Assembly (NCBI GenBank): GCA_023265395.1
Contig: JAHFTX010000008.1
Coordinates: 9,604 to 73,603 of the forward strand
Source of the DNA: Thermoplasmata archaeon
GTDB lineage: Archaea > Thermoplasmatota > DTKX01 > JAHFTX01
Length of the DNA: 64,000 bases
Reading direction: 5' to 3'
Under the pieces are notes generated by a model. It did not search any database and had not been told where the DNA came from. It saw only the letters and a list, made by a program, of their open reading frames with translations. Within the stretch, counting starts at the first letter, position 1; each line of letters starts with the position of its first letter. A program made the position numbers and the translations under genes. Shown one piece after another: positions 9,574-50,849 of this stretch.

Positions 9574-9862
9574 CCGACGGGGTAGACCTGTGGGGGGGAC
9601 GTGGGGATCCATGCGGGTGACTCCAGATGCGCGCACCCTGGGGCATTCGGCAAGATTCGGGTTGCTACCAGGGCCGGTAACGCTGGGGCAATTGAGCTGA
9701 ACGAAGCTACATATATGCTCTGGTCTCGGTCTCGAAGGCCCTCCAGTCGGGGAGCGCCACCTGCAGTTGGAGAGCGTCAAGCGGATAGTGCAGATGACGG
9801 AGGGGATGGCCGTAGGATCGATTGGAGGCCCCGACACCAATCCGCTACCGGCACCCGGGAGG

Positions 9863-11011
9863 GTGTGGCGCCCCTCGTACAGGGTTTTCCTCCAGGGCGG
9901 GGCGATGACCCGCTTTGGCAAGCGGCCCGAGTCGTTGCTGGGGATCGCCCGGGCCGCTACTGATTCACTGCTCGCCGCAACCGACGCCCGACCAGACTAC
10001 CTGCTCGTCTCAAACTTCAATGCCGAGCAGTTCTGCGGCCTGAGCAACCTGCCCTTGCGCATCGCTTCACACCAGGGGCTGCCGTCCCTCCCCGGCGCCC
10101 GGGTCGAGGCGACCAGCGCCAGCGGGGGAGCGGCAGTGCAACAGGGCGCCGCGCTCATCGGCGCAGGACTTGCCCAGCAGGTGTTGGTGGTTGGCGTAGA
10201 GAAGATGACCCACGTTCCGACCGCCACCGCCACCGCCATCCTTGGCCAGGTGCTGCACCCTTCGGAGGTCGCCGCAGGGCTGTCGATGCCGGCGGTCGCT
10301 GCGGTCGCGACGCGCCTCTGGCTGACCACAGTTCCAGGAGCGTCCATGGCCGCGCTCAGCGCGGTCGCGACGAAGAATCACGCCAACGCGGTGCACAACC
10401 CCTTCGCTCATTTCCAGACGGCGCTCGGTCCGCAGGACCTGGCCTCCAGTCCGCTGGTCGCCGAGCCGCTGCGCCGACATGACTGCGCCCCCCTGTCCGA
10501 TGGCGCTGCGACCCTGCTCCTGGGCGCCGACTCCTCCGATGTCGAGGTGGTGGGCATGGGGGCCGCCAGCCAACCGCTGGCCCTCGCCGACCGGCCATCG
10601 CCACTGGAGGGCAAGGCCACCGCTGTTGCGGGGGGCGCTGCCCTTGCACAGGCGGGGCGAGAGGCCTCGCAGGTCGAGGTCGCCGAGATTCATGACGCCT
10701 TCACCATACTCGAACTCCTCTCCCTCGAGGACCTTGGGCTGCTCCCCAAAGGCACAGCTCACGAAGCGACGCTCGAGGGCATCACATCGATCGATGGGCG
10801 GCTTCCGACCAACCCCAGCGGGGGCCTCAAGGCACGGGGACATCCGATCGGGGCCAGTGGCGTCGCGCAGGTCATCGAGGTCGCCGCGCAGTTGCGCGGC
10901 GAGTGCGGTGGGCGGCAAGTGGGCAAGGGTCGTCGTCCGAACCTTGGCCTGGCCCATGCCATCGGGGGTTTTGGTGCCGCCAGCACGGTCACCCTGCTCG
11001 CGCGCCGCTAG
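9863..11011 (+). CDS. Archaeal thiolase family protein (acetyl-CoA acyltransferase, SCP2-thiolase-like)
   Basis: GAMTRFGK, RVEATSASGGAA, VVGVEKMTH, KNH.NA..NP.AHF, C.PLSDGAA, AEIHDAFT, NPSGGLKARGHPIGASG. Start approximate (GTG 9863). Confidence 0.88.
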   Translation: MWRPSYRVFLQGGAMTRFGKRPESLLGIARAATDSLLAATDARPDYLLVSNFNAEQFCGLSNLPLRIASHQGLPSLPGARVEATSASGGAAVQQGAALIGAGLAQQVLVVGVEKMTHVPTATATAILGQVLHPSEVAAGLSMPAVAAVATRLWLTTVPGASMAALSAVATKNHANAVHNPFAHFQTALGPQDLASSPLVAEPLRRHDCAPLSDGAATLLLGADSSDVEVVGMGAASQPLALADRPSPLEGKATAVAGGAALAQAGREASQVEVAEIHDAFTILELLSLEDLGLLPKGTAHEATLEGITSIDGRLPTNPSGGLKARGHPIGASGVAQVIEVAAQLRGECGGRQVGKGRRPNLGLAHAIGGFGAASTVTLLARR

Positions 11012-23867: not shown

Positions 23868-24287
23868 ATGGTACCGGCTGACCAGTATGTGGGCGTAGGC
23901 GTGCTCATCATCGTGGCGCTGTTGTTCCCGTTGGGCACCCTCTTCGCCACCCGCCTGTTCCGTCCCCGTCGCACGCCGGTGGGCGCGCGCCAGTTCATGC
24001 TGGGGATCCACTATGCCGAGCGGACCGATGACCGCTACGCCGAAGATACCTACGAATGCGGCAACCCACTGATGACCGAGACCAGCGACATCGATTTCCA
24101 CTTCCAGTATTACATGTACGCCATCATCTTCGTCGCTGCCGACGTGATGGCGATCTTCCTAATCCTGTGGGGCTTGGACTACCAGGAACTCTCAGACTCG
24201 GCGCGAATGGCGATGCTCGGCTTCGTCGCCGTGTTGGTCATCGGGGTGCTCTACGCCCTGCGCAAGGAATCGATGGTGTGGATATAG
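23868..24287 (+). CDS. nuoA: Complex I-like (Nuo/Fpo) subunit A
   Basis: Three TM helices, TYECG, QYY.YAI.FV..D. TATATATA box at about 23834. Confidence 0.92.
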   Translation: MVPADQYVGVGVLIIVALLFPLGTLFATRLFRPRRTPVGARQFMLGIHYAERTDDRYAEDTYECGNPLMTETSDIDFHFQYYMYAIIFVAADVMAIFLILWGLDYQELSDSARMAMLGFVAVLVIGVLYALRKESMVWI

Positions 24288-24298
24288 GGAGGGTGCCG

Positions 24299-24916
24299 AT
24301 GACCGCTCAATCGCCGGGGATCCACTTGGAGCGGCCAACGGACGACCGGGAGACCCAGATCGGTTTTGCCCGCAGCGAGGACCTCCTTGAGTGGTTGACC
24401 AACATCGCTGAGGACCAGACCGAGAAGTTCGGCATCAAGAACCTGGTGAAGCCCCTCAACCATGACATCTTCAACTGGGGACAACGTCACAGCATCTGGT
24501 TCCTCGAGATGGGAATCATGTGTTGTGCCCTCGAGATGGGGGCGGCGATTGGTCCGCGCTATGACCTGCACCGCTTCGGGATCGTCCCGCGGGCCAGTCC
24601 GCGGCAATGCGATGTCATGATCGTCAACGGACCCATCTCGTACAAGCTGAAGGACGGCTTGTTGCGCCTCTATGAGCAGATGCCCGAACCCAAGTGGGTC
24701 ATCTGCATGGGGGAATGCTCCATCAGTGGCGGTCCCTACCACAAGGCCTACTCGATCATCAAGGGTGCGCGGCAGTTCTTGCCCGTGGATGTCTTCATCC
24801 CCGGCTGCCCGGTACGGCCCGAGGCGTTGATCCACGGCTTCATGGTCTTGCGGGAAAAGATTGAGAGCATGAAGGTCAGCCAGGGCAAGCAGACCGTCCT
24901 GGTGGAGAAGATCTGA
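24299..24916 (+). CDS. nuoB: Complex I-like subunit B (N2 cluster)
   Basis: CCALEM, RASPRQ.D, YEQMPEPKWVICMGEC, PVDV.IPGCP.RPEA. Confidence 0.95.
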   Translation: MTAQSPGIHLERPTDDRETQIGFARSEDLLEWLTNIAEDQTEKFGIKNLVKPLNHDIFNWGQRHSIWFLEMGIMCCALEMGAAIGPRYDLHRFGIVPRASPRQCDVMIVNGPISYKLKDGLLRLYEQMPEPKWVICMGECSISGGPYHKAYSIIKGARQFLPVDVFIPGCPVRPEALIHGFMVLREKIESMKVSQGKQTVLVEKI

Positions 24917-24944
24917 GCATCATCGGGTGCTGGGGAGGGTTGCG

Positions 24945-25592
24945 ATGGCTGGCGGACGCAAGGTCGTTGCCAAGCGACGGGTCACCACCTCAGCGGCCTC
25001 GCCCGACCCTGGGCATCTCGGCGCACGCCACAGCTCCAAGAGCGGCGTGGCAGGGAGCGGGGGCGACAGCAGCCCTGAGGTCCTGCTCGAGGAACTCGAG
25101 GAGCTCCTCCCGAGCGTCATCCTGCGATCGGCCGTGCGCCTGCAGAAGCACGAGTTGCGCATCAAGGTCGGCCGGGACGACCTCGTCCGGGTCTGCACGC
25201 TGCTGCGCGACAACTTGAGCCTCGAGCACTGCACCCTGATCACCCCGGTCGACTGGGTGACGCACTGGAGCTGCGTCTACCACCTGTTCAGCTACAGCCG
25301 CCGTCCCCTCAACCTCGAGATCATCGTCGACCTGCCGCGGGCCGAGCCCTGGGTCGACAGCATCACGCCCCTCTATGCCGGCGCCAACTGGCACGAGCGC
25401 GAGGCCTACGACCTGATGGGGATCGACTTCCGCGGCCACCCCGACCAGCGCCGGATCCTCAATCCTGACTGGTGGGAGGGCCACCCGTTGCGCAAGGATT
25501 ACACTTGGGACATGGAGCCCCACAAGATCGGAGGATTCGTCCCCCTGTTCGAGATCAAGGGCGGCGAGAGCGGCGGCAACACGAACCTGTAG
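24945..25592 (+). CDS. nuoC: Complex I-like subunit C
   Basis: SITP.Y.GANWHEREAYDL.GI.F.GHPD.RRIL.P..W.GHPLRKD. SD GGAGG. Confidence 0.93.
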   Translation: MAGGRKVVAKRRVTTSAASPDPGHLGARHSSKSGVAGSGGDSSPEVLLEELEELLPSVILRSAVRLQKHELRIKVGRDDLVRVCTLLRDNLSLEHCTLITPVDWVTHWSCVYHLFSYSRRPLNLEIIVDLPRAEPWVDSITPLYAGANWHEREAYDLMGIDFRGHPDQRRILNPDWWEGHPLRKDYTWDMEPHKIGGFVPLFEIKGGESGGNTNL

Positions 25593-25607
25593 GTCGGGAG
25601 GGCGCAC

Positions 25608-26711
25608 ATGGCACAGATGTGGGTAAGCATGGGTCCGCAACACCCGATGACCCACGGCCTGTGGCGCCTGCGGGTCAGGGTCGATGGCGAGATCATCACC
25701 GAGGCCGACCCGGACATGGGCTGGCTTCACCGCTCGGTCGAGAAGCTCACCGAGCTCTACGAGTACCCTTTCAATACCATCTTCACCGACCGGCTCTGCT
25801 ACGCCTCACCGCTGACCTGGTCGCATTGTTACGTCGCGGCGGTCGAGGACCTGATGGGTGTCGAGGTCCCCGAGCGGGCTCGGTACATGCGTGTCATCGT
25901 CCTCGAGCTGCAGCGGATCCTGTCCCACTTGATGTGGTTTGCCGCCTATGGCCCGGACCTGGGTTTGTTCGCCGCAGCGGTCTACGGGTTCCGCGAACGC
26001 GAGGACTTCATGGACCGCATCCAGGAGCTGACCGGTCAGCGGCTCAACTACAATTACCTCCGGATCGGTGGTCTCAAGCATGACTTCCCGCCAGGATGGA
26101 CCGATCGGCTGTTGGAGACCTGCGACCGCTTCCTTCCGCATCTGGAGGAGTACAAGGGCATGTGCGAGAACAACTCGATCTTCCGCATGCGCACGCAGGG
26201 TGTCGGAATCCTGCCTGCCAAGGATGCGATGAACCTGGGGGTGACAGGCCCCAACTTGCGGGCCAGCGGCGTCGACTACGACGCGCGCGTGGACAATCCC
26301 TACGAGGCCTACGGGGAACTCGATTTCCCCAAAGTCGTCGCTACCGAGGGGGATTGCTATGCTCGCTTCGTCGTCCGGCTCTACGAGCTGGAGCAGTCGG
26401 TGGGGATTCTCCGCCAAGCGATCAAGCAGATGCCCGACAAGGGCAAGTACCGGGCCCGAGCCCCGCGCAACGGGCCCAAGTGCGACCGTGTCTTCGACGG
26501 CACTGGTGTCGCCCGCGTGGAAGACAGTCGCGGTGAAGCGATGTTCTACGTCATCGGTCAGGGTAACGAGTACCCCTACCGGGTGAAGATACGCTCCCCT
26601 GCCTATACGACCATCGGCGCAAGCCCGGTCATGCTCGTGGGCAGTCGTGTCGCCGACATTCCCGTGATCCTCGGCTCCATCGACATGTGCATCGGCGAGA
26701 CTGATAAGTAG
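25608..26711 (+). CDS. nuoD: Complex I-like subunit D (no NiFe CxxC pairs)
   Basis: GPQHPMTHG, G.LHRS.EK, DRLCY, ELQRI.SHL, GP.LRASGV.YD.R, GDCYAR, PYR.KIRSP, IDMCIGETDK. Confidence 0.94.
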   Translation: MAQMWVSMGPQHPMTHGLWRLRVRVDGEIITEADPDMGWLHRSVEKLTELYEYPFNTIFTDRLCYASPLTWSHCYVAAVEDLMGVEVPERARYMRVIVLELQRILSHLMWFAAYGPDLGLFAAAVYGFREREDFMDRIQELTGQRLNYNYLRIGGLKHDFPPGWTDRLLETCDRFLPHLEEYKGMCENNSIFRMRTQGVGILPAKDAMNLGVTGPNLRASGVDYDARVDNPYEAYGELDFPKVVATEGDCYARFVVRLYELEQSVGILRQAIKQMPDKGKYRARAPRNGPKCDRVFDGTGVARVEDSRGEAMFYVIGQGNEYPYRVKIRSPAYTTIGASPVMLVGSRVADIPVILGSIDMCIGETDK

Positions 26712-26738
26712 GGACGTCGGCGCTGGGAGGGGTGGGAC

Positions 26739-28172
26739 GTGGGGCTGTCGTTGCATGAGGTCCTACTGGTCTACCTGCTGACGCCCATCGCGGGATTCCT
26801 CGATGGCCTCCTAGAGCGGATCACCGGATTCCTGGTGCCGCCCTTGGTCGGAGCCATCGAGTTCGGCGCGGAGCAGACAGGATTCCGAGTCCTCGGCTAC
26901 CTCGCCCAAGGGATCTCCTACCTCAACTGGACCCGCTTCCCCTTGCGCCTGAGCACACCCTTCATGCTCAGCTTCCTGACGGCAGCGGTCGCCGCGGTGC
27001 TCCTGTTCGCTTTCATGATGGTCAACGTCCTGGTGCTCACCTGGCTGGAGCGCAAGATGTTCTCACGCATGTGGGACATGCGCGGTCCGATGGCCGCGTC
27101 GCTCAACAACATGCAGGCTCTCTGGTGGGTATTCGTCGTGGCGGGTCTCGCCGCTCTTGCGGTGTGGGTGTGGGTCGCCTGGTTCGTCTACCCTGGCGAG
27201 GTTGCCGACAGCGTCAAGATTGCCGGTGTGGCGCTGGGTGGTTTCGTCGCGTTCGGGTCGCTCCTGTGGACTCGAGGTCACCTCGAGGGTGCCGGCTTCA
27301 TGCAACAACTGGCCGATGGCAACAAGTTCTTCCTCAAGGAACTGATCATCCCGCGGGCTGCCGACCTGACGATCTACAACCTCGCCCCGATACTGTTCGT
27401 GAGCAGTTCCATCGTCCTGATCGCGGCCATCCCGTTCTCTGACGGGTTCTTTGCGGTGGATACCTCCATGGGGCTCATCTTCACGATGGGCGTCTTCGCG
27501 GTCGCCCCTCTCGCCGTCCTCGGGGGCGGGTGGGCGCAGAACAACAAGTACACCCTGATCGGCGGGATGCGCTCGGCTGCGATGATGATGAGCTATGAGA
27601 TTCCTCTTCTGTTGTCGCTGGTGCCGGTGTTCATTTTCGCCGGGACTTTCAACCCTCTGGAGATCGTCCAACGCCAGGTCGATGCTGGCGTCTGGTTCGG
27701 CACTGGGACCTTCTTCCTGGCACCGTTGGTGTTCATGATCTGCCTCGTCGCTGAGGTCGAGCGCATCCCCTTCGACCTGCCCGAGGCCAATTCGGAGCTC
27801 GTCGAAGGCTGGGTGACCGAGTACACCGGCATGCGCTTCCTCTTCCTGCTGATGGCGGAGTACATCCGTAGCTTCGTCGGCGCGGCGATCTTGGTGCTGG
27901 TGTTCTTCGGCGGCTGGACCGGCCCCATCTACGCGGCCCTCGCGCCGACGCTGGTGGGAATTCTCGGCTTCGACCTAGCGGTGCTCTTCATGCTCGCGAA
28001 GATCTACCTCGTGTTCATCCTCTTCATCTGGATCCGCGCCTCACTGCCCCGGGTGCGCACCGACCAGATCCTGCAGATTGGCTGGCATCGCTTGTTACCG
28101 TTGGCGCTGATAGCAATCGTTATCGCCATGTTCATGCAATTCCTCGACTGGACATCCTGGAGCCTGTTCTGA
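26739..28172 (+). CDS. nuoH: Complex I-like subunit H, extended
   Basis: WLERK...R....RGP, Q.LADG.K...KE, NKY.L.GG.R....M.SYE, E.ER.PFDLPEA.SELVEG..TEY.G, W.R..LPR.R.DQ. Confidence 0.93.
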   Translation: MGLSLHEVLLVYLLTPIAGFLDGLLERITGFLVPPLVGAIEFGAEQTGFRVLGYLAQGISYLNWTRFPLRLSTPFMLSFLTAAVAAVLLFAFMMVNVLVLTWLERKMFSRMWDMRGPMAASLNNMQALWWVFVVAGLAALAVWVWVAWFVYPGEVADSVKIAGVALGGFVAFGSLLWTRGHLEGAGFMQQLADGNKFFLKELIIPRAADLTIYNLAPILFVSSSIVLIAAIPFSDGFFAVDTSMGLIFTMGVFAVAPLAVLGGGWAQNNKYTLIGGMRSAAMMMSYEIPLLLSLVPVFIFAGTFNPLEIVQRQVDAGVWFGTGTFFLAPLVFMICLVAEVERIPFDLPEANSELVEGWVTEYTGMRFLFLLMAEYIRSFVGAAILVLVFFGGWTGPIYAALAPTLVGILGFDLAVLFMLAKIYLVFILFIWIRASLPRVRTDQILQIGWHRLLPLALIAIVIAMFMQFLDWTSWSLF

Positions 28173-29080
28173 TGGCCGGTGCGTTGGTGATCCCCCCTCG
28201 TCCCGAGGGGACGGGAATCGACGGGGGTTTGCTCGAGTTGTTCATCAAGCCGATGGGGGTGACCGCCAAGACGATGTGGCGGACCTGGAAGTTCGGCGCT
28301 GCGCGGCCGCGCACCAACCTCTACCCGATCGAGAAGCCCGACATGCCCGAGTACTACCGGGGCTTCCATGAGATCGACTGGGAACTCTGCATCGGCTGTT
28401 CCGTCTGTGCACGGGTCTGCCCCAACGACTGCATCCAGATGGAGAAGGTCGATCTGACCGCTTCAGACGAGATCGACAAGCTCTACTCGCGGTCGTTTAT
28501 GGACTCTAAGAAGGGCGTCGCCAAACGTCCCGGTGTGGACATGGGCCACTGCCTGCTCTGCGGGTTCTGCGAGGAGTACTGCCCCACAGACGCCTGGCGG
28601 ATGGTCAACAAGTTCGAGCTCGCCGATACCGAACGCGACCGACTCTACTACAGCGCCGCCGCCTTGCGCAAGGACGAGCCCCGAGCGCCGCCGCGCCTGC
28701 TCAACAAGGCCATGGAGAATCCGCAGTTGGACTGGGCCAACTGCACAGGTTGCCAAGCCTGTGTCCGCCACTGTCCGACGCGGTGCATCTACACGGTCGA
28801 AGCCGGCGCCAACGAGAAAGGGCGGAAGATCCGCAAGGTCGTCTTCGACTACGCCATCTGCATCGGTTGCCGCACCTGCGTCGAAGCCTGCAAGTTCGAC
28901 GCGCTGGAGATGAACAATCAGGAGGCCGTCACCAATCCCGTGGAGGCCGAGCCCTGGGTGCGGGCCTTCAACATCGAGGAGGGGACGTTGCGGTTGCAGC
29001 CCAACATGCCCAAGTTCCAGAAGGTCAACCCCGTCGGAGCTCCGCAGGAGCAGCCCCTCTCGGGACCCCTCGAACCCTGA
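28172..29080 (+). CDS. nuoI: Complex I-like subunit I with four [4Fe-4S] motifs
   Basis: YP.EK.....YRG.H, then CIGCSVCARVCP, CLLCGFCEEYCP, CTGCQACVRHCP and CIGCRTCVEACK. Confidence 0.9.
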   Translation: MAGALVIPPRPEGTGIDGGLLELFIKPMGVTAKTMWRTWKFGAARPRTNLYPIEKPDMPEYYRGFHEIDWELCIGCSVCARVCPNDCIQMEKVDLTASDEIDKLYSRSFMDSKKGVAKRPGVDMGHCLLCGFCEEYCPTDAWRMVNKFELADTERDRLYYSAAALRKDEPRAPPRLLNKAMENPQLDWANCTGCQACVRHCPTRCIYTVEAGANEKGRKIRKVVFDYAICIGCRTCVEACKFDALEMNNQEAVTNPVEAEPWVRAFNIEEGTLRLQPNMPKFQKVNPVGAPQEQPLSGPLEP

Positions 29081-29100
29081 GCGTCGGTGCCGTGTCCGCC

Positions 29101-29607
29101 TCATTCGTGGAGGAAGAGGTCCCCGTTGCCGATGAACCCGGGAAGCGGTTGAGCGACCTGGAGGGTGTAGACGAACTTCCCCTCTGGGGGGACCTGCTCG
29201 ATGGCTGTGATCTCCACCCCGCGCAGATGGGCCACCGATCGCTCCGTCGAGACGATCGGATGGGGGGGGAACGAGGCCAGCTGATCCCCGGGGTGCACCT
29301 TCTCAGCGCGCTGGGTGGTCATCTTCCCGGCCGCCAGCAGGTAGACCCGTTGGGAGGGTCGGACCATGAGTGGGGGGTGGTCGGCGACCGCCAACCGCAG
29401 CATCACATCTGGGGCAGGATCCTTGGTGGTCTCGGTCACGGGATTGGTTATTGGTCGGTGGCGCGGGCTGAGGCCCAAGGCCACCTGAAGCGAGTGCGGC
29501 GGTGTCGTGCCGGGGCCCGCAGGGAGGAACGAATCGACGAGGTCCCCGAGGCCGACCTCGTGCAGCCTTCCATGGCGCAGCAGGGTGATCGACGTGCGTC
29601 GGTCCAC
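29101..29607 (-). CDS. Stand-alone HINT (intein-like) domain protein, catalytically degenerate
   Basis: Intein block A-like VDRRTSITLLRHG, block B-like LMVRPSQRVY...AEKVHPGDQL, block F-like EITAIE.VPPEGKFVYTLQV, block G-like FIGNGDLFLHE-stop. BRE/TATA-like CGCGAAGCGTAATAAG about 25 nt upstream. Confidence 0.75.
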   Translation of the reverse strand: MDRRTSITLLRHGRLHEVGLGDLVDSFLPAGPGTTPPHSLQVALGLSPRHRPITNPVTETTKDPAPDVMLRLAVADHPPLMVRPSQRVYLLAAGKMTTQRAEKVHPGDQLASFPPHPIVSTERSVAHLRGVEITAIEQVPPEGKFVYTLQVAQPLPGFIGNGDLFLHE

Positions 29608-29724
29608 CGGCGACGAAGGGAAGGGCCCCTTATTACGCTTCGCGCAGAGGTCGCAGGGGCTGGTCAGGAGAGGGCTTGGCGGCCATGCGTGGCCTCCCTA
29701 TGCGTCGCGGCTCCGCCAATACCC

Positions 29725-29738
29725 CGAAAGCGTTATAT
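29725..29738 (+). promoter_or_regulatory. BRE/TATA promoter
   Basis: CGAAAGCGTTATAT; same motif as at 33180 and 50811. Confidence 0.6.
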
Positions 29739-29810
29739 CGCGTCCCTCCCGGTCAGCGCATCCTAGCGCTGTGTGCTCGCAAGGCCGCAGCTCTGCTCCC
29801 GAGGGCCTTC

Positions 29811-32800
29811 ATGAATCGACGTACCCGCGTTGGTCGGATGGCCGCCACTACAGGTCGTCGACCTGCACGCAACGCCCGTAGGGGCGGTCGGACCGCCGCC
29901 CGGTTGCTGGTGGCGCTGCTGGTGCTAATGGTGCTGCCGATTCTCGACATGCCCGCAGGCGCCCAGTCGACGAGCACGGGATCGACGACCAAGCTCGCCG
30001 ACGGCACGACCACGGCCTTCCTCAACTTTACCCAAGCCGGCACACTCTCGTTCGATGTGCGGATCAACAAGGCCTGGACGATCAACGAGGCGGTGTTCCA
30101 GATTCGCGGGGGAGAACAGGTGATCGACCCTGGCACAGAGTTCGAGACCCATGCCTGGCCGGCGAACCTGCGGCTCGACGTCGGTGGTGATTCGACGATC
30201 GAGTTCCAATTCCCCGGTGAGTGGGGACGGATGGCGAACTTCGGCCTGGAGGCCAACGAGCCCAGCCCCGACTTGCGATTCATCGCCAAGGAGACTCAAG
30301 AGGTCCCCCTGCACGTCCCCGTGGCGGACGTCGAGACCTCCCGTTTCGTCGCCAACTCGACCTCCGAGGACCAATTCGAGTACAAGGCCGTCATCCCGAC
30401 CTCTCCCGAGAGGGTCGTCTGGCGCAAGAGCTCGATTGGATTCACCTTGGCCCAGACGGTCAACATCCCCGACGATGCCAACGATCTGGCGGTCACCAAC
30501 ATCGACCTCAACAATGCCCCCGATGTGATAGTCGCCAGCGACAAGAGCGGCGTCGTCACTCTTGCCAACAGGCCTCCCAACGGGCTGCAGCCGGGCGTGA
30601 CCTGGACCGGGGTCGGTCAAGGCGAACGCCTGCTGGCGATGGGCGTTGGCGATTATGACGGGACAACGTCCCAGGATGTCGTCGTCGGGACGGACAAGGG
30701 CAAGGTCTACGTCTTCAACAACCAAGGGCAAGGAATCCTGGGGGTCCCGGAGGCCATCACCCTGGGCGACCAGGCGGTGGATGCCGTCCTGGTGACCGAC
30801 CTCGACGGGGATGGCGATGGCGACATCATCGCTGGATACGAGGGGCTCTCGATCTTCCTCATAAAGTACGACCTCAACCAGAACACCTGGGAGGAGCCGT
30901 TGCGGATCCCCAGCGGCTTGGGAGGCTTCACCGACCTGGTCGCTGCCGACCTCGACCAGGATGGCCTGACCGATGTCGTTGGCGCCAACCAGGACGGCGC
31001 CATCTACGTCTTCCTCAACAGCGGCGGGAACACCCTCGTCCCGCAGCCGAAGGTCAGTGCTGCGACCAAGTCGATGCGAAAGGTCGTCGCCGCTGACTTG
31101 ACCGGCGATGGGATTGCCGATGTGGGCGGGGTGAGCGAGGACGGGCGGTTCTACCTATTCTCGGGTCTGGGCGGCGGCGTGCTCGATTCAGGTGATGCGT
31201 ACCTGGTGAGCCAAGCTCCCCTGCGCGACCTTGCGCTTGCCGACCTCAACAAGGATGGCAAGGAAGACCTGCTGCTCCTCTCACAGGATCGTTTCCTCTA
31301 TGTCCTGGTAAACCGGGGCTTCGGTATCTTCGGCGGCCTCGAGGCAGGGGTCTCGACGGCCTCGCGCTTGCTCGAGGCGGGAGCCTCAGCGCTGAGCATC
31401 ACCACCGGGGACGTCGACCACGACAGCGATGTGGACCTCCTCTTGGGCACGACCAAAGACGTTCAGGTGTGGACCAACAACCTGGGGCCCTTCGAGGTCA
31501 CCAGCGCGGACTTCGCCCCTGCGCTCGACACCTATCTGGAGCAACTCGGCGCCGAGGAGCAGATCAAGGACCCCTGGGGGACCCCGTTCGTCAATGTCCC
31601 GCTGCAGTTGACATCGGAGTTCGACAGCGATATCTCGCTGCTCGGCCTCAACATCACCTACAACTACACCGCGCCGGTAGACTTGCGGGCCGCTTTGGGT
31701 GTCTACAAGGACAGCCACAAGAGTGACGCCGATACTGCGGGGGACATCATCGTCCCCGTCACCCTCACCTCCGATGGCCCAGGGCAGGTGTTCCTCGAGG
31801 GGCTGCACATCGCCTATTCCGAGAATTTCGCCGTCACCGTCATCTCGCCCTCGACCCGCCAGAACCACCTCACCAATCAATCGTTGGTCTTCGAGGGCCG
31901 CTCGACCATCGACCGCGAGCCCGACTTCGCCAACCCCGACGTCAACTACACCTGGCGGGTCGAAGGTCGCGCCTTCGGATGGGGGCGCCGCGTGGTGGTC
32001 GCCGACATCGAGGAGGAGCTAGGTGCCCTCGAGGCCGACGTCCAGACCTTCACGGTCCGCCTCACCGCCAAGGTGCTGGCGGGGTCCTACAAGGGGGCGA
32101 CGGATAGTTCGGAGTTCGCCGTCACCGTCGAACGGCCATCGTTGCCCGTGGTTCGTGTCAAGCTCTCTGTCTCGGAGACCTCGGTGGTCGAGGGAACGAA
32201 GGTCCGGATCATCATGCAGATCGAGAATACCGGCAAGATCAATGCCACGGGGCTGACCATCCAACTCCGAGACGACACGGTCGGCCGCTCTATCCAGGCC
32301 TACGTCATCCCCCGTCTGATCCACGGCGAGATTCCGCAGCAGTACACCCTCGATCAGACGCTGGGGGTGGGCAAACATACCATCGTGGCGGTGATCAAGT
32401 CCGTCAGCCCCGTGGAGACCGAGGTGATCTCCAACGACGCTCGGCAGGTCACCGTCACCGCCAAGCCCATCGACTGGGACTTCATCTTGACCCTGGCAGT
32501 GTTCTTCGCGCTGATCGCCTATGTCGCCTTGCTGGGCCTGCGGATCAAGAAACGCCGGGATGACCTGGCGATGCGTCAGGACCGCAAGGAGGAGATGAAG
32601 GCCATGCACCTGAAGATCCAGGCCGAGATGGCTCAGTTCATCGCCACGACCGGGGGCATCGGGACCGCAGCTCAACAGGCCCAGCTCTCGGAGGTCCGCA
32701 AGGCCCGCGAGCAGGCAGAGTTCGAACGCCAGAACCTGATCAACGACATCCGCGCACAAGTGCGCCTCGCTGAAGAGACCTTGCGACAGGTGCGAGAGAT

Positions 32801-33143
32801 GGGCATCGACGTCGATGACGCCGACGACCTGCTGGCCTCCGCCAAGGAGGCCTTGGCCAGAGAGAACTTCGACCAGGCGCTCGCCGATGCGGAGACGGCC
32901 GAGGACATCGCCACCGAGCAGAAGGAGCGTTACGAGGCAGCCTTCACGGTCATGGCCCAGCAGGCCGAGACCGAGGACGCCACCGAGCGCCGTCGCAAGC
33001 GCCTCGATCGCCGCCGCGATCTGCGCAAGAGGCAGGAATCGTACCAGAAAGCCGTCGACGGTGCCGAAGGGAGCGGGCAACCGCCCGGAGATACGCCCGA
33101 AGGGGCGGATGGCGCGAGCGCAGGACCCTCCCCCAAGCCGTAG
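29811..33143 (+). CDS. FG-GAP/VCBS-repeat surface protein with CARDB-like domain, TM helix and cytoplasmic coiled coil/helical bundle
   Basis: Basic N-region and signal helix. About 7 DxDxDGxxD repeats (DLDGDGDGDII, DLDQDGLTDVV, DLNKDGKEDLL). TM FILTLAVFFALIAYVALLGL, then a charged helical tail. Start uncertain (29811 or 29838). Confidence 0.85.
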   Translation: MNRRTRVGRMAATTGRRPARNARRGGRTAARLLVALLVLMVLPILDMPAGAQSTSTGSTTKLADGTTTAFLNFTQAGTLSFDVRINKAWTINEAVFQIRGGEQVIDPGTEFETHAWPANLRLDVGGDSTIEFQFPGEWGRMANFGLEANEPSPDLRFIAKETQEVPLHVPVADVETSRFVANSTSEDQFEYKAVIPTSPERVVWRKSSIGFTLAQTVNIPDDANDLAVTNIDLNNAPDVIVASDKSGVVTLANRPPNGLQPGVTWTGVGQGERLLAMGVGDYDGTTSQDVVVGTDKGKVYVFNNQGQGILGVPEAITLGDQAVDAVLVTDLDGDGDGDIIAGYEGLSIFLIKYDLNQNTWEEPLRIPSGLGGFTDLVAADLDQDGLTDVVGANQDGAIYVFLNSGGNTLVPQPKVSAATKSMRKVVAADLTGDGIADVGGVSEDGRFYLFSGLGGGVLDSGDAYLVSQAPLRDLALADLNKDGKEDLLLLSQDRFLYVLVNRGFGIFGGLEAGVSTASRLLEAGASALSITTGDVDHDSDVDLLLGTTKDVQVWTNNLGPFEVTSADFAPALDTYLEQLGAEEQIKDPWGTPFVNVPLQLTSEFDSDISLLGLNITYNYTAPVDLRAALGVYKDSHKSDADTAGDIIVPVTLTSDGPGQVFLEGLHIAYSENFAVTVISPSTRQNHLTNQSLVFEGRSTIDREPDFANPDVNYTWRVEGRAFGWGRRVVVADIEEELGALEADVQTFTVRLTAKVLAGSYKGATDSSEFAVTVERPSLPVVRVKLSVSETSVVEGTKVRIIMQIENTGKINATGLTIQLRDDTVGRSIQAYVIPRLIHGEIPQQYTLDQTLGVGKHTIVAVIKSVSPVETEVISNDARQVTVTAKPIDWDFILTLAVFFALIAYVALLGLRIKKRRDDLAMRQDRKEEMKAMHLKIQAEMAQFIATTGGIGTAAQQAQLSEVRKAREQAEFERQNLINDIRAQVRLAEETLRQVREMGIDVDDADDLLASAKEALARENFDQALADAETAEDIATEQKERYEAAFTVMAQQAETEDATERRRKRLDRRRDLRKRQESYQKAVDGAEGSGQPPGDTPEGADGASAGPSPKP

Positions 33144-33179
33144 GGAGCGCCCGGCGACGCGCTAGTCAGCCACGGCCCA

Positions 33180-33190
33180 GAAAGGTTATA
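33180..33190 (+). promoter_or_regulatory. BRE/TATA promoter
   Basis: GAAAGGTTATA about 40 nt upstream of ATG 33229, with SD GGAGG between. Confidence 0.65.
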
Positions 33191-33228
33191 GGGCGCCCAG
33201 CGGCATCGAAAGGAGGCTGGGTGCTCTG

Positions 33229-36200
33229 ATGCTACCTGGTCGATGGACGAGCCTGCTGCCCCTGCTGGTCGTGGCACTGCTGGTCCTCCCCCTCCTGTCG
33301 GCGGCCGTCGCAACCGAGGCATCGGATCCTTCGTCGACCCATGGTCGGCAGCAGACCATTCCCAGCTGTCTCTCGACGCCAGTGGTAGATGGCTTCTACA
33401 ATAGCAGCGCGGAGTGGGTCGGCTCTCTCAACCTCGACATCGGCGTCAGCGGCAGGGCCGCCGAGCTGTACGTTTGTGCCGATGGGATGTCGCTCTACTT
33501 CCTGGCAGACCTCATCCAGGAGACGACCCCTGACCCGACCTCGGGCCCGCTGGCCGCCGACGGCGCGACCGAGTACTTCACGATCATCATCGACGGCGAC
33601 AACGATGGCGAGGTCACCTACGCGCAGAACCAACAGGGGTTCAAGCCCCCCGACCAAGGAGGTCAGAACGTCGACCATGGCGTCCTCGTGGGCAAGAACC
33701 TCACCACCCGCTGGGTCGGGCAGCTCTACACCGGTCAGGGCCTGACCTTTGCCACGCAGTGGAGCTACGCCGACATCTTCGCGTACAACTACAACGGCAG
33801 CGCCAACTTCGGCACCTCGCACCTGATCGCCGAGGTCTCGATCCCCTACGATGGCCCCGGTGATGTCCTGGGTGGTTCGATCTGGAAGGGTTTCGTCAAG
33901 GGCCTCTACATCGTCGGATTCGACAGCGCCCTGCCGGCAGGGGACCAGATGTATGCCTCCTGGCCCCAGCCCCCCCCGGCGGGTCTGGCCGGTGGCTTCG
34001 ACCCGATGACGTTGCCCCAGGAGCTCCCCCACATCCGGATCACCGACCCGGCGGTTGCTGATGGCCCCTTCGAGGTCGGGACGGCGGTGGTCGTCACGAC
34101 CGAGGCGACCGATGACTCGGTTGGCACCCTCACCTATCAGTGGGACCTCGATGGCACGCCCATCGCTGGTGCGACGGCGGCCACCTACCCGTTCGATCCG
34201 ACCGCCGCCGGATTCTACGATCTGCAGGTGACGGTCACCGACACCCAGAGCAATGCTGAGTCGGCCGACATGGTGATGGAATGGATCCCCCAAGAGACGG
34301 GACCGTCGACGGTCAGCACCGAGCCACCCGCTGGCGCTGTGGAGGGCGTCGAGGGCGCGGACCTTCCGCTGTCGTTGACCTACCAGGATCTCAATCTGGG
34401 CCAATCGGATGAGGCGGTGGCGGTCTCCTGGACCCTCAACGGTGCTGCCGTCACTCCCTCGAAGGTCTCGGGTTTCCAGGTCGATCCGACGACCCGGCGG
34501 ACCACCTACACATTCTCGACCGACTACGAGATGGCGGGCACCTACGCGGTCTCAGTCTTGGTCACCGACAGCTACCTCGATGCCGGGCTCACGACCTCGG
34601 CGACCTGGTCGGTGACGGTCGCCAACACCAACCGACCGCCCAAGATCGAGACGGCGACCCCAGCGGGCAACGCGATCGCCCTCAAGGAACTCGAGTCGGT
34701 GCAGTTCGAGATCTCGGCGACAGACCCCGACTCGGACACCCTCGAATACGCGTGGACCTTCGATGATCTCCCGCAGCCCCTCTCAGCGGGGGCGCTCAGC
34801 TTCACCTATCTGAGCGACCTCTCCTCTGCCGGTCCCCACACGGTGCGAGCGGAGGTCTCCGATGGCACCGATGAGGTCAACCGCACTTGGAGCGTGACGG
34901 TCGACAACCTCAACCAGGCCCCGCGGATCGTCTCCCTCTCCCCCGAGGGGGCCGTGGTACTCGACGAAGGCTCCAGTCAGACCTTCTCCGTCGTCGCCGC
35001 GGATGCCGACGAGGACTCGTTGACCTACCTCTGGCGGCTCAACGAGCTCGACATCGAGAGTGCCACCACTCCAACCTTCGTGTTCACAACGGCCTTCACT
35101 GGTCCGATGAGCGCAGGGGGCTACACCCTCGAGGTCATCGTCAAGGATGGCCACGTCAGCACCCCGACGAGCTGGGAGATCGAGGTCCGCAACGTCGATC
35201 GACCGCCGGTGGTCGTCTGGGCCTCGCCCCAAGAGGGCAGCACCTTCCCGCTCGGAAGCCGCGTCAACTTCATCGCCGGCGAGAGCAAGGATCCCGACGG
35301 GCACGCGCTGACGTACGCATGGGACTTTGGGGACGGGTCCAAGGCCGTCGAGGCGGTGCTCACCCATGAGTACCGCCAGCCGGACACCTATCAAGTGACC
35401 CTGACCGTCTCCGATGGTGGGACGCCCATCGTGCTCAGCCGCACCATCACGATCGAGGCAGCGGTGGTCTCGGTGACCTTCATCAAGGCCGAGCCAACGA
35501 CTGCCAAGGAGGGTAGCTCGATTCACCTCGAGGTGACCGTGCGCAACAGCGGAAACCTGGCGGTCGACGGCGTGGCGGTGACGCTGGTGATCGGGAGCTC
35601 TGTGTCTGCCCAGCTCTTTGCGAACCTCACCCCCCAGGCCGACCAGGTGCTGACCTTCGAATGGAAGGCGCGACCAGGTACCCACAAGGTCTCCGCCTCG
35701 ATCGCCCCAAAGGACGGGCTCCAGATCGATACCAGTGGCACCCCACCGAGTGTCACGCTCACGATCGAGGCCCTCCACCGGACCGACGATTCGGGACAAC
35801 CTTCGTTGTTGACATCGCCAGTGGTCTTGGGGGGGATCGTCGGGTTGCTGGTCGTGCTCATCGTGGTCGCGCTTATCGCCGCCAGGCGCGTCAAGGCGAA
35901 GCGCTACTCCGAGGGATTGATGGCCTCAGTACCAGCCCCTGCCGCGCCGATGACCTACCAGACCGACTACCAGGCGAGGGCGCTCTCCCAGGAGACCTTC
36001 GCCCGAGCTCTCCAGACGACCCAGACGCCAGCGGAGCGCTCCACGGCCTCGAGCAAGGCGCGCGTCTGCCCCCATTGCAAGGCCGAGGTGTTCGAGGAGA
36101 GTGCCGACTGCCCCTTCTGCTACAAGCCGATGGTGGTGGCGCCCCCGCCGCCAAAGCCCGTCATCGCTCCGCCTGCAGCCGTCCCCTCCGTACCTGTCAC

Positions 36201-36798
36201 ACCCAAGGGGCCGACCTGCCCCGCGTGCCACGAGCCGGTCGAGGCAGGCTGGAAGCTCTGCCCCTTCTGTGACCACGCACTCGGCGAGCCGTCTGCGCCA
36301 AGCAGCGCCGGTGCAGCAGGGACGAAGTCTGCCAGCACTCGGCCCACCTCAGCCAAGACCCACTGTCCCGCCTGCAACGAGGAGGTCGAACGGGATTGGA
36401 AGATCTGCCCCTTCTGTGACAACGAGCTCAAGGGCAGCTCACCGACTCCCCCTAGGTCGACCAGGCCCAGCGGCACCGCCGTCAGTGGGCCATCCCCTAC
36501 CAAAGGATCCGCAAGCGCGGCTCCGTCACGACCTTCGCCGACCAATGCTGCCAGCCCGTCGCCCAGGGGGGCTGCTCCCATCCCAGCGGTGGCCCCCCCC
36601 GCGGCGAGCCTCGCAGGCGCATTCACCAGCCGGCTGGCGACATTGCAGGCCGCTCTCGAGCGCGCGGAGGCGGGGGGGAAGCCCCGCAAGGACGTGCGCA
36701 ACTTCCTGACCCTGGCGCAGCGCAATCACGGCTCCGGGAAGCTCGACAAGGCGACCGAATACCTCGATAAGGCGCAGAAGGCCCTCGAGCCCTCCTGA
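33229..36798 (+). CDS. PKD/Ig/CARDB surface protein with TM helix and three cytoplasmic zinc ribbons
   Basis: Signal peptide, repeated N..P.I...D.D.D.L.Y.W Ig modules, PKD YAWDFGDG, TM helix, CPHC..CPFC and two CPAC...WK.CPFC units. Confidence 0.87.
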   Translation: MLPGRWTSLLPLLVVALLVLPLLSAAVATEASDPSSTHGRQQTIPSCLSTPVVDGFYNSSAEWVGSLNLDIGVSGRAAELYVCADGMSLYFLADLIQETTPDPTSGPLAADGATEYFTIIIDGDNDGEVTYAQNQQGFKPPDQGGQNVDHGVLVGKNLTTRWVGQLYTGQGLTFATQWSYADIFAYNYNGSANFGTSHLIAEVSIPYDGPGDVLGGSIWKGFVKGLYIVGFDSALPAGDQMYASWPQPPPAGLAGGFDPMTLPQELPHIRITDPAVADGPFEVGTAVVVTTEATDDSVGTLTYQWDLDGTPIAGATAATYPFDPTAAGFYDLQVTVTDTQSNAESADMVMEWIPQETGPSTVSTEPPAGAVEGVEGADLPLSLTYQDLNLGQSDEAVAVSWTLNGAAVTPSKVSGFQVDPTTRRTTYTFSTDYEMAGTYAVSVLVTDSYLDAGLTTSATWSVTVANTNRPPKIETATPAGNAIALKELESVQFEISATDPDSDTLEYAWTFDDLPQPLSAGALSFTYLSDLSSAGPHTVRAEVSDGTDEVNRTWSVTVDNLNQAPRIVSLSPEGAVVLDEGSSQTFSVVAADADEDSLTYLWRLNELDIESATTPTFVFTTAFTGPMSAGGYTLEVIVKDGHVSTPTSWEIEVRNVDRPPVVVWASPQEGSTFPLGSRVNFIAGESKDPDGHALTYAWDFGDGSKAVEAVLTHEYRQPDTYQVTLTVSDGGTPIVLSRTITIEAAVVSVTFIKAEPTTAKEGSSIHLEVTVRNSGNLAVDGVAVTLVIGSSVSAQLFANLTPQADQVLTFEWKARPGTHKVSASIAPKDGLQIDTSGTPPSVTLTIEALHRTDDSGQPSLLTSPVVLGGIVGLLVVLIVVALIAARRVKAKRYSEGLMASVPAPAAPMTYQTDYQARALSQETFARALQTTQTPAERSTASSKARVCPHCKAEVFEESADCPFCYKPMVVAPPPPKPVIAPPAAVPSVPVTPKGPTCPACHEPVEAGWKLCPFCDHALGEPSAPSSAGAAGTKSASTRPTSAKTHCPACNEEVERDWKICPFCDNELKGSSPTPPRSTRPSGTAVSGPSPTKGSASAAPSRPSPTNAASPSPRGAAPIPAVAPPAASLAGAFTSRLATLQAALERAEAGGKPRKDVRNFLTLAQRNHGSGKLDKATEYLDKAQKALEPS

Positions 36799-42046: not shown

Positions 42047-42595
42047 ATGAGCCGCGGGCCGCGCACGTTCCACTTGCTGTTCCTGGGCGACAAGGACGTC
42101 GGGATCACCAGCCTGATCGAACACACCCCCATCGACTACGCTGGCGAAGGAGATTGGGGCTTGGGGATCGAATTCTACCAACAGAATGTCCGCCTGCAGG
42201 AGGGGCCCGCCCGCCTGGTCATGTTCGAGCTCGGCCGCGAGGATTCCTTTGCCACCGTCGCTCGCAACTTCAAGCGAGACTGCGGCGTCATCCTCGTCTA
42301 TGACGTCACCCGCCCGACGACCTTGGCCAACGTCCTCGACACCTTCTCCCGCCTCAAGCCCCACCTGCCGGAGGTCATCCCCCGGATCCTCGTCGCCAAC
42401 AAGGCGGACCTCGAGGATTCTCGGGAGGTCGACACCCCAGCGGGGTTCGCCGCAGCATCGGCAATCGACGCCGAGTACCTCGAGACCTCGGTCGTGGACA
42501 AGGATCGGGAGAACATCCAATTGGTCTTGACCGACATCGCTGAGGCCATCGCCCACGTCGACTTCGACGAGGGCGACTCTCAAGACCTCGAGTAA
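42047..42595 (+). CDS. Rab-like small GTPase with degenerate G1-G3 motifs
   Basis: G1 GDKDVGITS, LGIEF, RLVMFELGREDSF, LVYDVT, G4 ILVANKADL, G5 YLETSV. Confidence 0.82.
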   Translation: MSRGPRTFHLLFLGDKDVGITSLIEHTPIDYAGEGDWGLGIEFYQQNVRLQEGPARLVMFELGREDSFATVARNFKRDCGVILVYDVTRPTTLANVLDTFSRLKPHLPEVIPRILVANKADLEDSREVDTPAGFAAASAIDAEYLETSVVDKDRENIQLVLTDIAEAIAHVDFDEGDSQDLE

Positions 42596-42662: not shown

Positions 42663-45600
42663 CTACTTGTGGCGAGCCGTCTGGCTGACGATCGCGGCCA
42701 TCGGAGGGTCGAGCGCGGACTGCGCGATGGCGGGGTCGGCCTCTGCCGCAGCTGCTCCAAGCAGTTGGGTCAGCGATAGCGCGCTCGCTGCGCCCGTGGT
42801 CAAGGAGACACCCCCGACAACTGGCGCCACGGTGGTCACGAGCACGAAGCCGCCGGCGAGGCTCCCATGGTTGGAGAGACCGACCTGTCGCCCGCCGGTA
42901 GGTCCAAGCTCGCGGCTGGACGTGGGTTTGCTGCGCGAATCATGGGGGTTGGTCGGCCAGGGATCGGCGCGATACTCATCGATGTTGCTCCATTGGTCGG
43001 CGTCAGGGTCCCCGGCAGAGCCGTTGTCGCCGATCGGCTCCCGGTCGTTGAGGTTGTAGACCTTCTCGTACCAGAAGGGGATCAAATCCTGGTCTCCATC
43101 GGTCAGGAACAGCAGGAAGTAGGCATCCGGGATCGGGATGGGCAGCACCAGCGGGCGCCCGTTCCCGTCGAAGAGGTTCTTCGAGATGATGGGGCTGAGG
43201 TACTGCGAGGGGTCGGTGGTCAGCTCGTTGATACCATCGGCGTCGACATCCGTGCCCGCGACGTATTCCTGGAGGTTGGGGAAGCTCTCGTTCTCCCAGA
43301 TGGGGTCGATGAACCCGTCCCCATTGAAGTCCTTGCGGGTGATGATCCAGTTCTCGCCCTCGTCGTACTGGAGGTTGCCGTTCGCATCGTTGAACTTGCT
43401 CGAATAGTTCATGCCGTCCTGGTCGGGATCGTCATACCAGTCGGTGGGAACCAATGGGTCGATGGTGTACTTGTTCGTCCCATTGATCGGCCGCCCATAT
43501 GCGACCTCGAAACCGTCTGGCATCCCATCCCTATCACTGTCGGGGTCGAGCGGGTCGGTCTGCCCAAAGGGACGCCGGAACTCCTCGACGTCCTCCAACC
43601 CGTCCTGGTCGATGTCGCCATCGAGGGAGGAGGGGATGATCGGGTTGAGGGCATTGGTGCCCTTGGCGACGACGCGAAGGGGGCGTTCGGGCAGTCCCGA
43701 GGGAATCACCCCGGGGATCTTGTCCCGGTCATCATTGGCGGTATCGCCGTCCGTGTCATTGCCGTTGTACGTGAACCCAGTCCGAGGGTCCTCCCAGGCC
43801 ATCACGGGGATGGTGCGGTAGACGTTCTGCCCCATAACCCGTTGCAGCTCCACGCTGCTTTCGGCGTCGACCCAGGTGCGTTCCCACTCCTGGAGGTTGG
43901 TCCAGTTGTCGCCATAGGTGAATCCCGCGGCTGGGCCATCGGAATTGTCTCCCGGGTCGCAGGCTTGCAGGTACGTGCTGCCGGCGGTAGGCTCGAAGTA
44001 GAGGCGTTCCCACCAGTCGGCGATGCCATCGGGCTCTGAGTCGAAGGCGTCGTCGCTGAATGCCCACTCATGGTTCCACCAATCGTCCCCCTTGCCATTG
44101 CTGGGGTCGGTGTTGTAGATCCACTCGTCGATGTTATGGAAGCCGTCGTTGTCCTTGTCCCCCTTGCCGTCGGAGTTGAGGATGGGGTTGAGGTCATAGA
44201 TCCGCTCCCACCAGTCGGGCATCCCGTCGCGATCGGTGTCCGAATAGACCGGCTGCCGGAGCAGCAGTGGGCGGCCCGAGGGGTCGAGATAGGTGTCGGA
44301 ACCGTCAAGGATGTCGTCCGCATCGGTGTCGGGATTGAATGGCTCCGTGCGGTGCTGGTACTCTGCGATGTTGTTGAACCCGTCGAGGTCGAAGTCCTCC
44401 TCGCTGTCGAGCACGTCGTCATCGTTGGGGTCGGAGGCATCGGAGTTGATGCGGGTCGGGTCGAGCTTGAACAGCCCGTAGGCGAGCTCCCAGAAGGTCG
44501 GCAGGCCGTCCTTGTCGAGGTCCGAGTGGTCGAACTCGAAGCCGTCGGTCATGCCGTCATAGTCACTGTCTTGCAGCTTGGGGTCGGAGCTGTTGACGAT
44601 CCCGACGGTGCTATAGACCACTTCGAAGCGGAGGACAGACCCGTCGATGTCTTTGATGGGACGGATCTTGGGGTTCCCAACGTCCTGCCCGTCGATTGGG
44701 TCGAAGTCCGTCAGCACCTCCAGGCCGTCCGAGAGCCCATCGCTATCGCTATCGGCCCGCAGGGCGTAGGGCCTGACCGTCGCACGCTGGTTGTTGACGG
44801 GCGTCCAGATATCGATTCCCAAGACCTCTTGGAGGTCGGAGAGACCGTCGCCGTCGCTATCGGACTGAGTCGGGTCGAGGTACTGCCATCCGGCGTCGGG
44901 GTCGGCATCGATAGTGTACAACTCGTCGAAGTCGGAGATCCCATCACCATCGGTGTCAGGGGCCGAGGCGTTGAGGGTGTAGCCGCGGAGGCGGCCGCGG
45001 ACCTCGTTGTAGTCGTTGAGGTCATGCTCCTCGTTGGGGTTGGAGCTCCCGTCATTGTCATCGTCGATGTCCTGGCCGTTCTTGGGTCCATCGAGGATGT
45101 ACTCCTCGTCGGCGCCGAAGTAGTTGTCCCCATCCTCATCGTCAGAAACGTCGTCGAGGTCGGTGTCAATCGCAGTGGCGCAGGTGAAATACCGTTCTTC
45201 CTTGTCGTTGACCCACACTAGCCATCCCTTGATGATCTCCTCGTCGTCGTGGAGCCGATCCCCGTCGGTGTCGAGCTTGAATGGGTCGGTGTTGTTGTAG
45301 TACTCTTCCAAGTTGAGCAGCCCATCGGGATGGGAAGCCCCGGTCTCGTCGAGATCGTTGTCTTCTTGGGCGTCCGCTGCGCGAAGCGGATCGAGATGAT
45401 AGGCCACCTCCCACCCATCTGGGATCTTGTCGCTGTCGGTGTCGGGGTCTTTTGGATGGGTCCCTGCGTCGAACTCGGCGATGTTCTGCAACTCATCGCC
45501 ATCAGGGTCAGCGAAACGGTCGTTGGGGTCGAGTGGATTGAGGCCGTAGTAGATCTCCCAGCCGTCGAACATGTGGTCGCCATCGGTGTCCGGGTTGATC

Positions 45601-46898: not shown

Positions 46899-46937
46899 GT
46901 CCAGCACACTCCTTCCCGTTGCGGTAGGTCCGATAGC

Positions 46938-50764: not shown

Positions 50765-50810
50765 TTCCTCCGGTGCCCCGGACCTCTCTTCTCCCGTTGT
50801 GGGACGTGAC

Positions 50811-50821
50811 GAAAGGTTAAT
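50811..50821 (+). promoter_or_regulatory. BRE/TATA promoter
   Basis: GAAAGGTTAAT about 30 nt upstream of ATG 50850. Confidence 0.6.
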
Positions 50822-50849
50822 CCCCCAAGGACAGGACCTGTTCATCTCG

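Follow-up and report, generated by a model that had tools for sequence, protein, structure and literature searches.

A free-standing, extein-less mini-intein homologue lacking the residues for splicing in a core region of an archaeal chromosome

The window analysed here, meaning the whole 64-kb stretch of DNA, has a G+C content of 65% and harbours genes for TBP, proteasome alpha, a his operon, an aminoacyl-tRNA synthetase, nuoBCDHI, aIF5A, DnaJ, FtsZ, and the A-type ATP synthase, all of them core functions. The 45 ORFs scanned in the window included no integrase or transposase, and ARAGORN detected no tRNA gene in the whole 64 kb. Rfam gave no match above noise, a compositional island was not found, and a repeat search of positions 28600-30200 revealed neither a target-site duplication nor terminal repeats. 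The ORF described in this work, a free-standing and extein-less homologue of mini-inteins (HINT domains) at 29101..29607 on the minus strand, sits in a core chromosomal region.

The convergent neighbour of the ORF is nuoI (28172..29080, plus strand), which encodes a protein of 302 aa with two 2x[4Fe-4S] modules. The stop codons of nuoI and of the ORF, on opposite strands, are separated by 20 nt, and a C-extein therefore has no room. On the other side, a region of approximately 200 nt is shared with the divergent gene of an FG-GAP-repeat surface protein (29811..33143, plus strand, 1110 aa from ATG). This gene is followed on the same strand by the gene of a second large surface protein with PKD, CARDB, and double zinc ribbon domains (33229..36798), so that the divergence from two large surface-protein genes proposed in the initial annotation was found as described. 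A tblastn search with six polymerases against the window matched only positions 29092-29613, with the intein part of the queries, and no similarity to polymerase exteins above noise was present in any frame of the 64 kb. With a start at intein position 2, a stop at position +1 and no extein similarity in the flanks, the free-standing, extein-less state that had been claimed for the ORF holds.

Other features of the window include the nuoB-C-D-H-I cluster (24056-29080), which ends at nuoI with no nuoJ-N genes after it. NuoB (286 aa) and NuoH (477 aa) are extended at the N-terminus by about 150 and 180 aa, and NuoI is distinguished by its second 2x[4Fe-4S] module. The load of large surface proteins is unusually high, with five very large predicted ones in 64 kb (8-3358, 5500-9921, 29811-36798, and 50196-56156). 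One of them is a subtilase with CARDB/NEW3 domains; the domain contents of the remaining ones are Big_9, FG-GAP, PKD/CARDB plus double zinc ribbons, and FG-GAP together with He_PIG. A Ras-family small GTPase of 182 aa (42047-42595, plus strand; Pfam Ras, E = 6e-21) adjoins a methyltransferase and an ORF of 1414 aa (42663-46907, minus strand), which shows a phase GC well in line with coding (0.63/0.39/0.83) and no Pfam match at E <= 1e-5.

The ORF consists of 168 codons and a TGA stop (29101-29103, minus strand), and the intact frame that had been claimed for it extends from the GTG at 29605..29607 to this stop, with no internal stop or frameshift. None of the 30 in-frame open codons upstream of the GTG is ATG, GTG or TTG, so that the GTG at 29607 is the sole possible start. 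Since the window is GC-rich and full of spurious long ORFs (136 ORFs of at least 150 aa), the codon phase was checked. The GC contents of the three codon positions in the ORF (0.72/0.47/0.82) follow the pattern of confident genes in the window, such as nuoH (0.60/0.40/0.85) and nuoI (0.58/0.46/0.87), and the coding-type phase is present in each half of the ORF. The 30 open codons upstream of the GTG show a non-coding phase (0.60/0.70/0.77), and the antisense frame gives the mirror pattern (0.82/0.47/0.72). An antisense ORF of 338 aa was ruled out as a real gene by its codon phase and the lack of a Pfam match.

Upstream of the GTG, at a distance of 23-28 nt, lies a TAATAA sequence (29630-29635, minus strand), a putative TATA-box-like element. 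It would make a plausible TATA box, although it is weaker than the TATA-like boxes before other genes of the window, and a leaderless transcript starting from it is plausible from its position. The predicted product has 168 aa, a mass of 18.3 kDa and a pI of 7.2, and contains neither Cys nor Trp. It is rich in His (nine residues, 5.4% compared to a background of 2.2%) and in Pro (11.9%, approximately twice the background).

When 1.84 billion representative proteins were searched exhaustively with a cut-off of E <= 0.001, eight matches were obtained. One of them, P0001, is a protein of 168 aa that is 99% identical to the ORF product, with A93G as the sole difference. Six others are intein-bearing polymerases or fragments of such (480-1256 aa, E = 4.6e-12 to 4.3e-5), in which Pfam identified Intein_splicing in all six, DNA_pol_B in five out of the six, and a LAGLIDADG endonuclease in two. 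The remaining match, P0004, was dropped as a compositional artefact; this repeat protein of 4652 aa is rich in Thr, Ala, and Ile and aligned in 26 weak stretches.

The ORF product aligns end to end with the inteins of the six relatives over 160-167 columns, at 25-30% identity, and the BLASTP alignments were concordant. A profile of the six inteins matched the ORF with 90 bits (E = 7e-27) at model positions 3-178 of 179, and no other match to it was present when the window was translated in six frames. A sequence search of the PDB with the ORF found the CDC21 mini-intein (6rpq, E = 4.6e-4), and a profile of the ORF and four mini-inteins matched 14 solved intein chains, among them the TFIIB, CDC21, PolII, PI-PkoII, RadA, and VMA inteins. 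The Pfam models for inteins and all HINT families gave no match to the ORF at E <= 10, and PHROGs gave none. In NCBIfam, the intein-bearing stretch of the PolD large-subunit model was matched weakly (E = 4e-7), and nothing else.

In the alignment, the six relatives have their intein insertion point in common (...LKWLLVT / C...HN / CFGYTGY...), which we take to be the K-x3-N-S-x-Y-G motif B of family-B polymerases, or 'pol-b site'. All six informative matches of the ORF (6/6) are inteins of this kind, while the ORF itself is located outside any family-B polymerase gene. Sequence comparison firmly establishes a class-1 mini-intein of the archaeal family-B DNA polymerase motif-B type (K-x3-V-T / C-F-G-Y) as the ancestor of the ORF. 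The ORF has the length and the block order A-B-F-G of the class-1 motif-B mini-inteins in P0005, P0007, and P0008, which have endonuclease-containing forms in P0002 and P0003, and shares 14 of 16 non-catalytic invariant residues with these inteins at the identity given above. In contrast to them, it stands outside a polymerase and is devoid of Cys1, the Thr and His of block B, the Cys at F:4, the terminal Asn and the +1 Cys, and its score is about half that of real members. As regards the polymerases themselves, a stretch reading HGIVDS in P0002 and P0005-P0008 (AGIVDS in P0007) presumably occupies the place of polymerase motif C (YxDTDS), and P0003 ends before that stretch. Judging from this sequence, P0002 and P0005-P0008 may represent a subgroup of polymerase B that is divergent or inactivated.

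The splicing residues were placed with MAFFT and BLASTP alignments to the six polymerase inteins and with the solved CDC21 intein, and all placements were concordant. Blocks A, B, F, and G follow each other in the mini-intein order, collinear end to end with the six relatives. The first residue of the ORF product (Met1, Val codon GTG) aligns with intein position 2, which is Leu or Phe in the relatives, and the untranslated codon before it, CCG (Pro) at 29608..29610 on the minus strand, takes the position that the Cys1 nucleophile has in inteins. Block B, T-x-x-H in the relatives, reads R83-P-S-Q86 in all alignments (29350..29361, minus strand; codons CGA ... CAA). A short linker of about residues 112-131 (29215..29274, minus strand) corresponds to the site of the LAGLIDADG homing endonuclease in P0002 and P0003, and no such endonuclease is present there in the ORF. 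Block F reads V146-Y-T148 (29164..29172, minus strand), the third position being F:4, an invariant Cys in the relatives. At the end of block G (29101..29109, minus strand), His167 (CAC) is followed by Glu168 (GAA) and TGA, where the relatives have Asn and then a +1 Cys or Ser.

These placements agree with the initial annotation in the block order, the start at intein position 2 after a Pro codon, RPSQ in place of TxxH, the retained penultimate His, and the terminal HE followed by a stop instead of a +1 nucleophile. For block F, its reading of VYT in the ORF stands, but the VYD that it expected is found in the distant CDC21 intein, and the closest relatives read VYC. As a post hoc curiosity, the replaced catalytic codons CGA, CAA, and GAA and the stop TGA all end in A, an ending shared by 15 of the 168 codons of the ORF (background A3 7.4%). 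A single C-to-A change could yield each of CAC to CAA, GAC to GAA, and TGC to TGA.

Among the features of a functional class-1 intein, the ORF retains the HINT splicing domain and its blocks in the order A, B, F, G, and lacks the in-frame insertion in a host gene, the position-1 nucleophile, the T-x-x-H of block B, the C-terminal Asn, and the +1 nucleophile. The steps of splicing are taken here as laid out in the available text of PMC3196547 and PMC7765530. Since no residue precedes position 2 or follows Glu168, and no nucleophile is present, no splicing step is expected to occur. Judged from the predicted protein, all four splicing steps, as well as cleavage at either single junction, would be impossible.

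The HINT fold that had been proposed for the ORF is borne out by the intein profile match, the solved intein chains found by profile, and the superposition of the ESM Atlas model of P0001, the 99% copy. The exact sequence of the ORF is absent from the Atlas, and the comparison is between predicted models on either side. This single-sequence model has a pTM of 0.83 and a pLDDT of 0.82, and its ten listed structural neighbours show TM values by query of 0.77-0.83 over 149-167 aligned residues. The ten neighbours are clusters, mostly archaeal, with Intein_splicing in many of their members. By superposition on HINT domains, the predicted model of the 99% copy belongs to the HINT superfamily fold.

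Stand-alone orthologues, which the initial annotation had suggested searching for, were limited to a sole relative, the 99% copy P0001. It was the only protein detected among 82 candidates in a word-based search. A profile search of proteins of 89-314 aa gave eight matches at E <= 0.001 among 3804 candidates, namely P0001 and seven fragments. The seven short matches were rejected as stand-alone relatives, as they are fragments of polymerase-intein genes that extend into exteins or endonuclease regions, or whose ends are junk. The neighbouring gene nuoI gives a measure of sampling: the only NuoI relatives above 50% identity in the large collection are its own copy (100%), P0010 (81%, on a contig of 2.5 kb), and P0011 (58%, on a contig of 3.1 kb). 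All others are at 46% or less, and one of these is named Thermoplasmata archaeon. When the genomes of 185,579 species were scanned with NuoI, 15 loci were obtained, all of them chance matches of bacterial ferredoxin type, and no relative. The lineage of the organism is almost unsampled, and consequently the absence of ORF orthologues carries little weight.

The initial annotation described the ORF as a domesticated HINT fold. The selective loss of catalytic residues, the intact collinear frame, and the confident public model speak for this description, and the single 99% copy and the high divergence speak against it. From the sequence pattern and the modelling, we put the chance that the ORF encodes a HINT-fold protein maintained by selection, with a new non-catalytic role, at about even. 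A possible but less probable reading is a well-preserved fossil without function, namely the intein copy of a decayed duplicated or transferred polymerase gene, or of an ectopic homing event. Its frame would then be open only through youth or luck in a GC-rich genome, and the ORF would resemble the Arth_1007 intein described below.

The pattern of retained residues bears on the choice between these two readings. Among the six inteins, twenty alignment columns from Cys1 through the terminal Asn are invariant. Of these, the ORF keeps none of the four catalytic ones (Cys1, His B:10, Cys F:4, and Asn) and 14 out of the 16 others, the two changes being P8T and L104V. The hypergeometric probability of this partition is 15/4845 = 0.003, in a test that is post hoc, the finding having been chosen because it looked dead. 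Each replaced position requires approximately one to three base changes. The probability that a random frame with the composition of the ORF contains no stop over 168 codons is P = 0.014. Drift was simulated from the present sequence in 4000 replicates, under HKY-like substitution and with an indel for every 20 substitutions, and replicates were counted in which the four internal catalytic codons were changed, at most two of the 16 structural codons were changed, and the frame was open. At best 2/4000 replicates fitted before the factor for the absence of indels was applied; with this factor, the joint probability under this simple model is approximately 4e-5 or less. On this model, the residue pattern would be poorly explained by neutral decay acting uniformly on a frame that remains open. 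The partition of catalytic and structural residues, the 168 codons free of frameshift, stop and large deletion, the improbable openness of the frame, the gene-like phase GC, and the confident single-sequence fold model thus argue against a fossil, as does the location in a tightly packed core region rather than a prophage remnant.

Other measurements favour the fossil. Apart from its 99% copy the ORF is a singleton, the Pfam intein models miss it, and in leave-one-out profiles it scores 85-93 bits compared to 155-241 bits for the left-out real inteins, about half. Its terminal branch is long, at 1.50 substitutions per site, where the other inteins in the tree have 0.24-0.92. Most of the retained invariants (G, P, A, D, and V) have GC-rich codons that are mutationally favoured at 65% GC, and the high Pro and His contents are also expected from GC pressure on a relaxed sequence. 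Open frames are cheap in this genome, the antisense frame being open for 338 codons. The rare A-ending codons at the replaced catalytic positions could plausibly each stem from one recent C-to-A change, and a dead orphan intein flanked by tiny exteins has a precedent, described in the accessible part of PMC3196547.

A further reading holds that the free-standing state of the ORF is artefactual and that it belongs to a longer gene, be it a polymerase gene that is frameshifted or mis-assembled or an intein that is still embedded. All its relatives except the 99% copy are embedded in polymerases, which would favour this reading. Against it are the lack of extein similarity in any frame of the 64 kb, the nuoI stop on the other strand 20 nt away, the just 30 open upstream codons with no start and a non-coding phase, and the recurrence of this 168-aa protein in a second sequence record. 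The possibility of a frameshifted part of a longer gene, raised in the initial annotation, is largely refuted by these results, and we regard the reading as very unlikely.

Even less probable is that the product retains an atypical autoprocessing or trans reaction by means of other residues. Some inteins work without the canonical residues, such as the Tko CDC21-1 intein, which has no block-B His according to the available text of PMC3196547 and PMC7765530. The ORF product, however, has no scissile bond at either end and no Cys, no Ser or Thr is found at position 1 or +1, and Glu replaces the terminal Asn. Finally, a chance ORF or antisense shadow with no true HINT relationship, which the abundance of long spurious ORFs in high-GC genomes and the silence of Pfam and PHROGs might suggest, retains next to no probability. 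It is refuted by homology, with E = 4.6e-12 among the 1.8 billion proteins searched and 90 bits with the intein profile, besides the TM of about 0.8 to inteins, the correct codon phase on the minus strand alone, and the antisense ORF without a Pfam match.

If the ORF is a protein kept by selection, its history may be pictured as follows. The start would have arisen in a copy of the polymerase gene by one base change at Leu2 (CTG or TTG to GTG), and the end by one base change at the +1 Cys (TGC to TGA). The extein DNA would have been lost after these start- and stop-creating changes. The fold would have been retained by selection after the loss of splicing, and the ORF would still be a real gene, with a weak TATA box and a leaderless mRNA. 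Its product would be a soluble, Cys-free HINT-fold protein of 18 kDa. As to its role, we can only guess at a non-catalytic binding module, in which the cleft of the former junction might be lined by Arg83, Gln86, Thr148, His167, and the C-terminal Glu168. Such a cleft might bind a partner or ligand, or might simply lock the free C-terminus. For the roles put forward in the initial annotation, binding of a ligand or metal or trans-modulation of inteins, the nine His residues and the lack of Cys are the sole hints.

The closest precedent for a fossil is the intein of Arthrobacter sp. FB24 Arth_1007, which was inactive by experiment and was presented by its authors, in the accessible text, as the first case of a genome that has retained a decayed intein pseudogene (Tori and Perler 2011, PMC3196547). 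It is located in a prophage remnant, has kept its homing-endonuclease domain, and is flanked by meaningless exteins of 52 and 14 aa (PMC3196547). As far as the available text describes it, Arth_1007 resembles the ORF in being an orphan with database similarity solely to inteins and in lacking the block-B His and the Cys at F:4. The ORF has lost the catalytic residues, as an intein pseudogene of this type would, and does not show the general decay that goes with it (frameshifts, stops, loss of motifs, and a dispensable mobile locus). On the same description, Arth_1007 is bacterial and prophage-borne, with endonuclease and exteins, whereas the ORF is archaeal, lies in a core region, and is a mini-intein with zero exteins in which structural residues are selectively kept.

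Accepted cases of domestication are the yeast genes HO and WHO, free-standing and intein-derived, with inactive splicing (bioRxiv 10.1101/2020.01.20.913210; PMC5056185, in the portions available). According to these sources, HO and WHO act through a LAGLIDADG endonuclease and a zinc finger. They share with the ORF the status of a free-standing gene with an inactive splicing domain, as far as those portions go, but they are eukaryotic and possess endonuclease and zinc finger, both of which are absent from the ORF, a mini-intein of 168 aa only. The horseshoe HINT fold is also common to Hog-Hint, the BIL types A and B (PMC7765530, in its available part), PT-HINT, and Hint_2 (Pfam). In the descriptions available, these domains are autoprocessing, are embedded in larger proteins and have kept their nucleophiles, in contrast to the ORF, which stands alone. 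The ORF matches no family model of BIL, PT-HINT or Hint_2, nor is it embedded in a variable secreted protein.

A feature search of the ESM Atlas, taken only as a lead, lists short (107-171 aa) HINT-only clusters from phages and bacteria with scores of 0.87-0.91. Similar to the ORF, these are small proteins with little more than a HINT domain, but they have no detectable sequence relationship to it in the exhaustive and profile searches. Gene calling could have produced them as fragments of intein-bearing genes. Phrase searches of the literature for free-standing, orphan, remnant, decayed or stand-alone inteins and Hint proteins yielded only Arth_1007 and HO/WHO, and no report on stand-alone prokaryotic HINT proteins was found by them. 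The ORF is an intein-derived free-standing gene or relic, distinctive in being archaeal, in having no endonuclease and zero exteins, and in its location in a core region.

Inteins are viewed as selfish elements, which keep splicing or vanish. The ORF may represent the first prokaryotic exapted mini-intein, in which host, endonuclease and catalytic residues are gone and a folded stand-alone protein is selected in a deep Thermoplasmata-like lineage, a possibility to which we give somewhat less than an even chance. If the ORF was kept as a bare HINT fold, the splicing domain itself would be recruitable for another job, and its product would be a natural HINT scaffold free of Cys and of termini. 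If it is only a fossil, it would still be a rare snapshot of the death of an intein outside its host gene.
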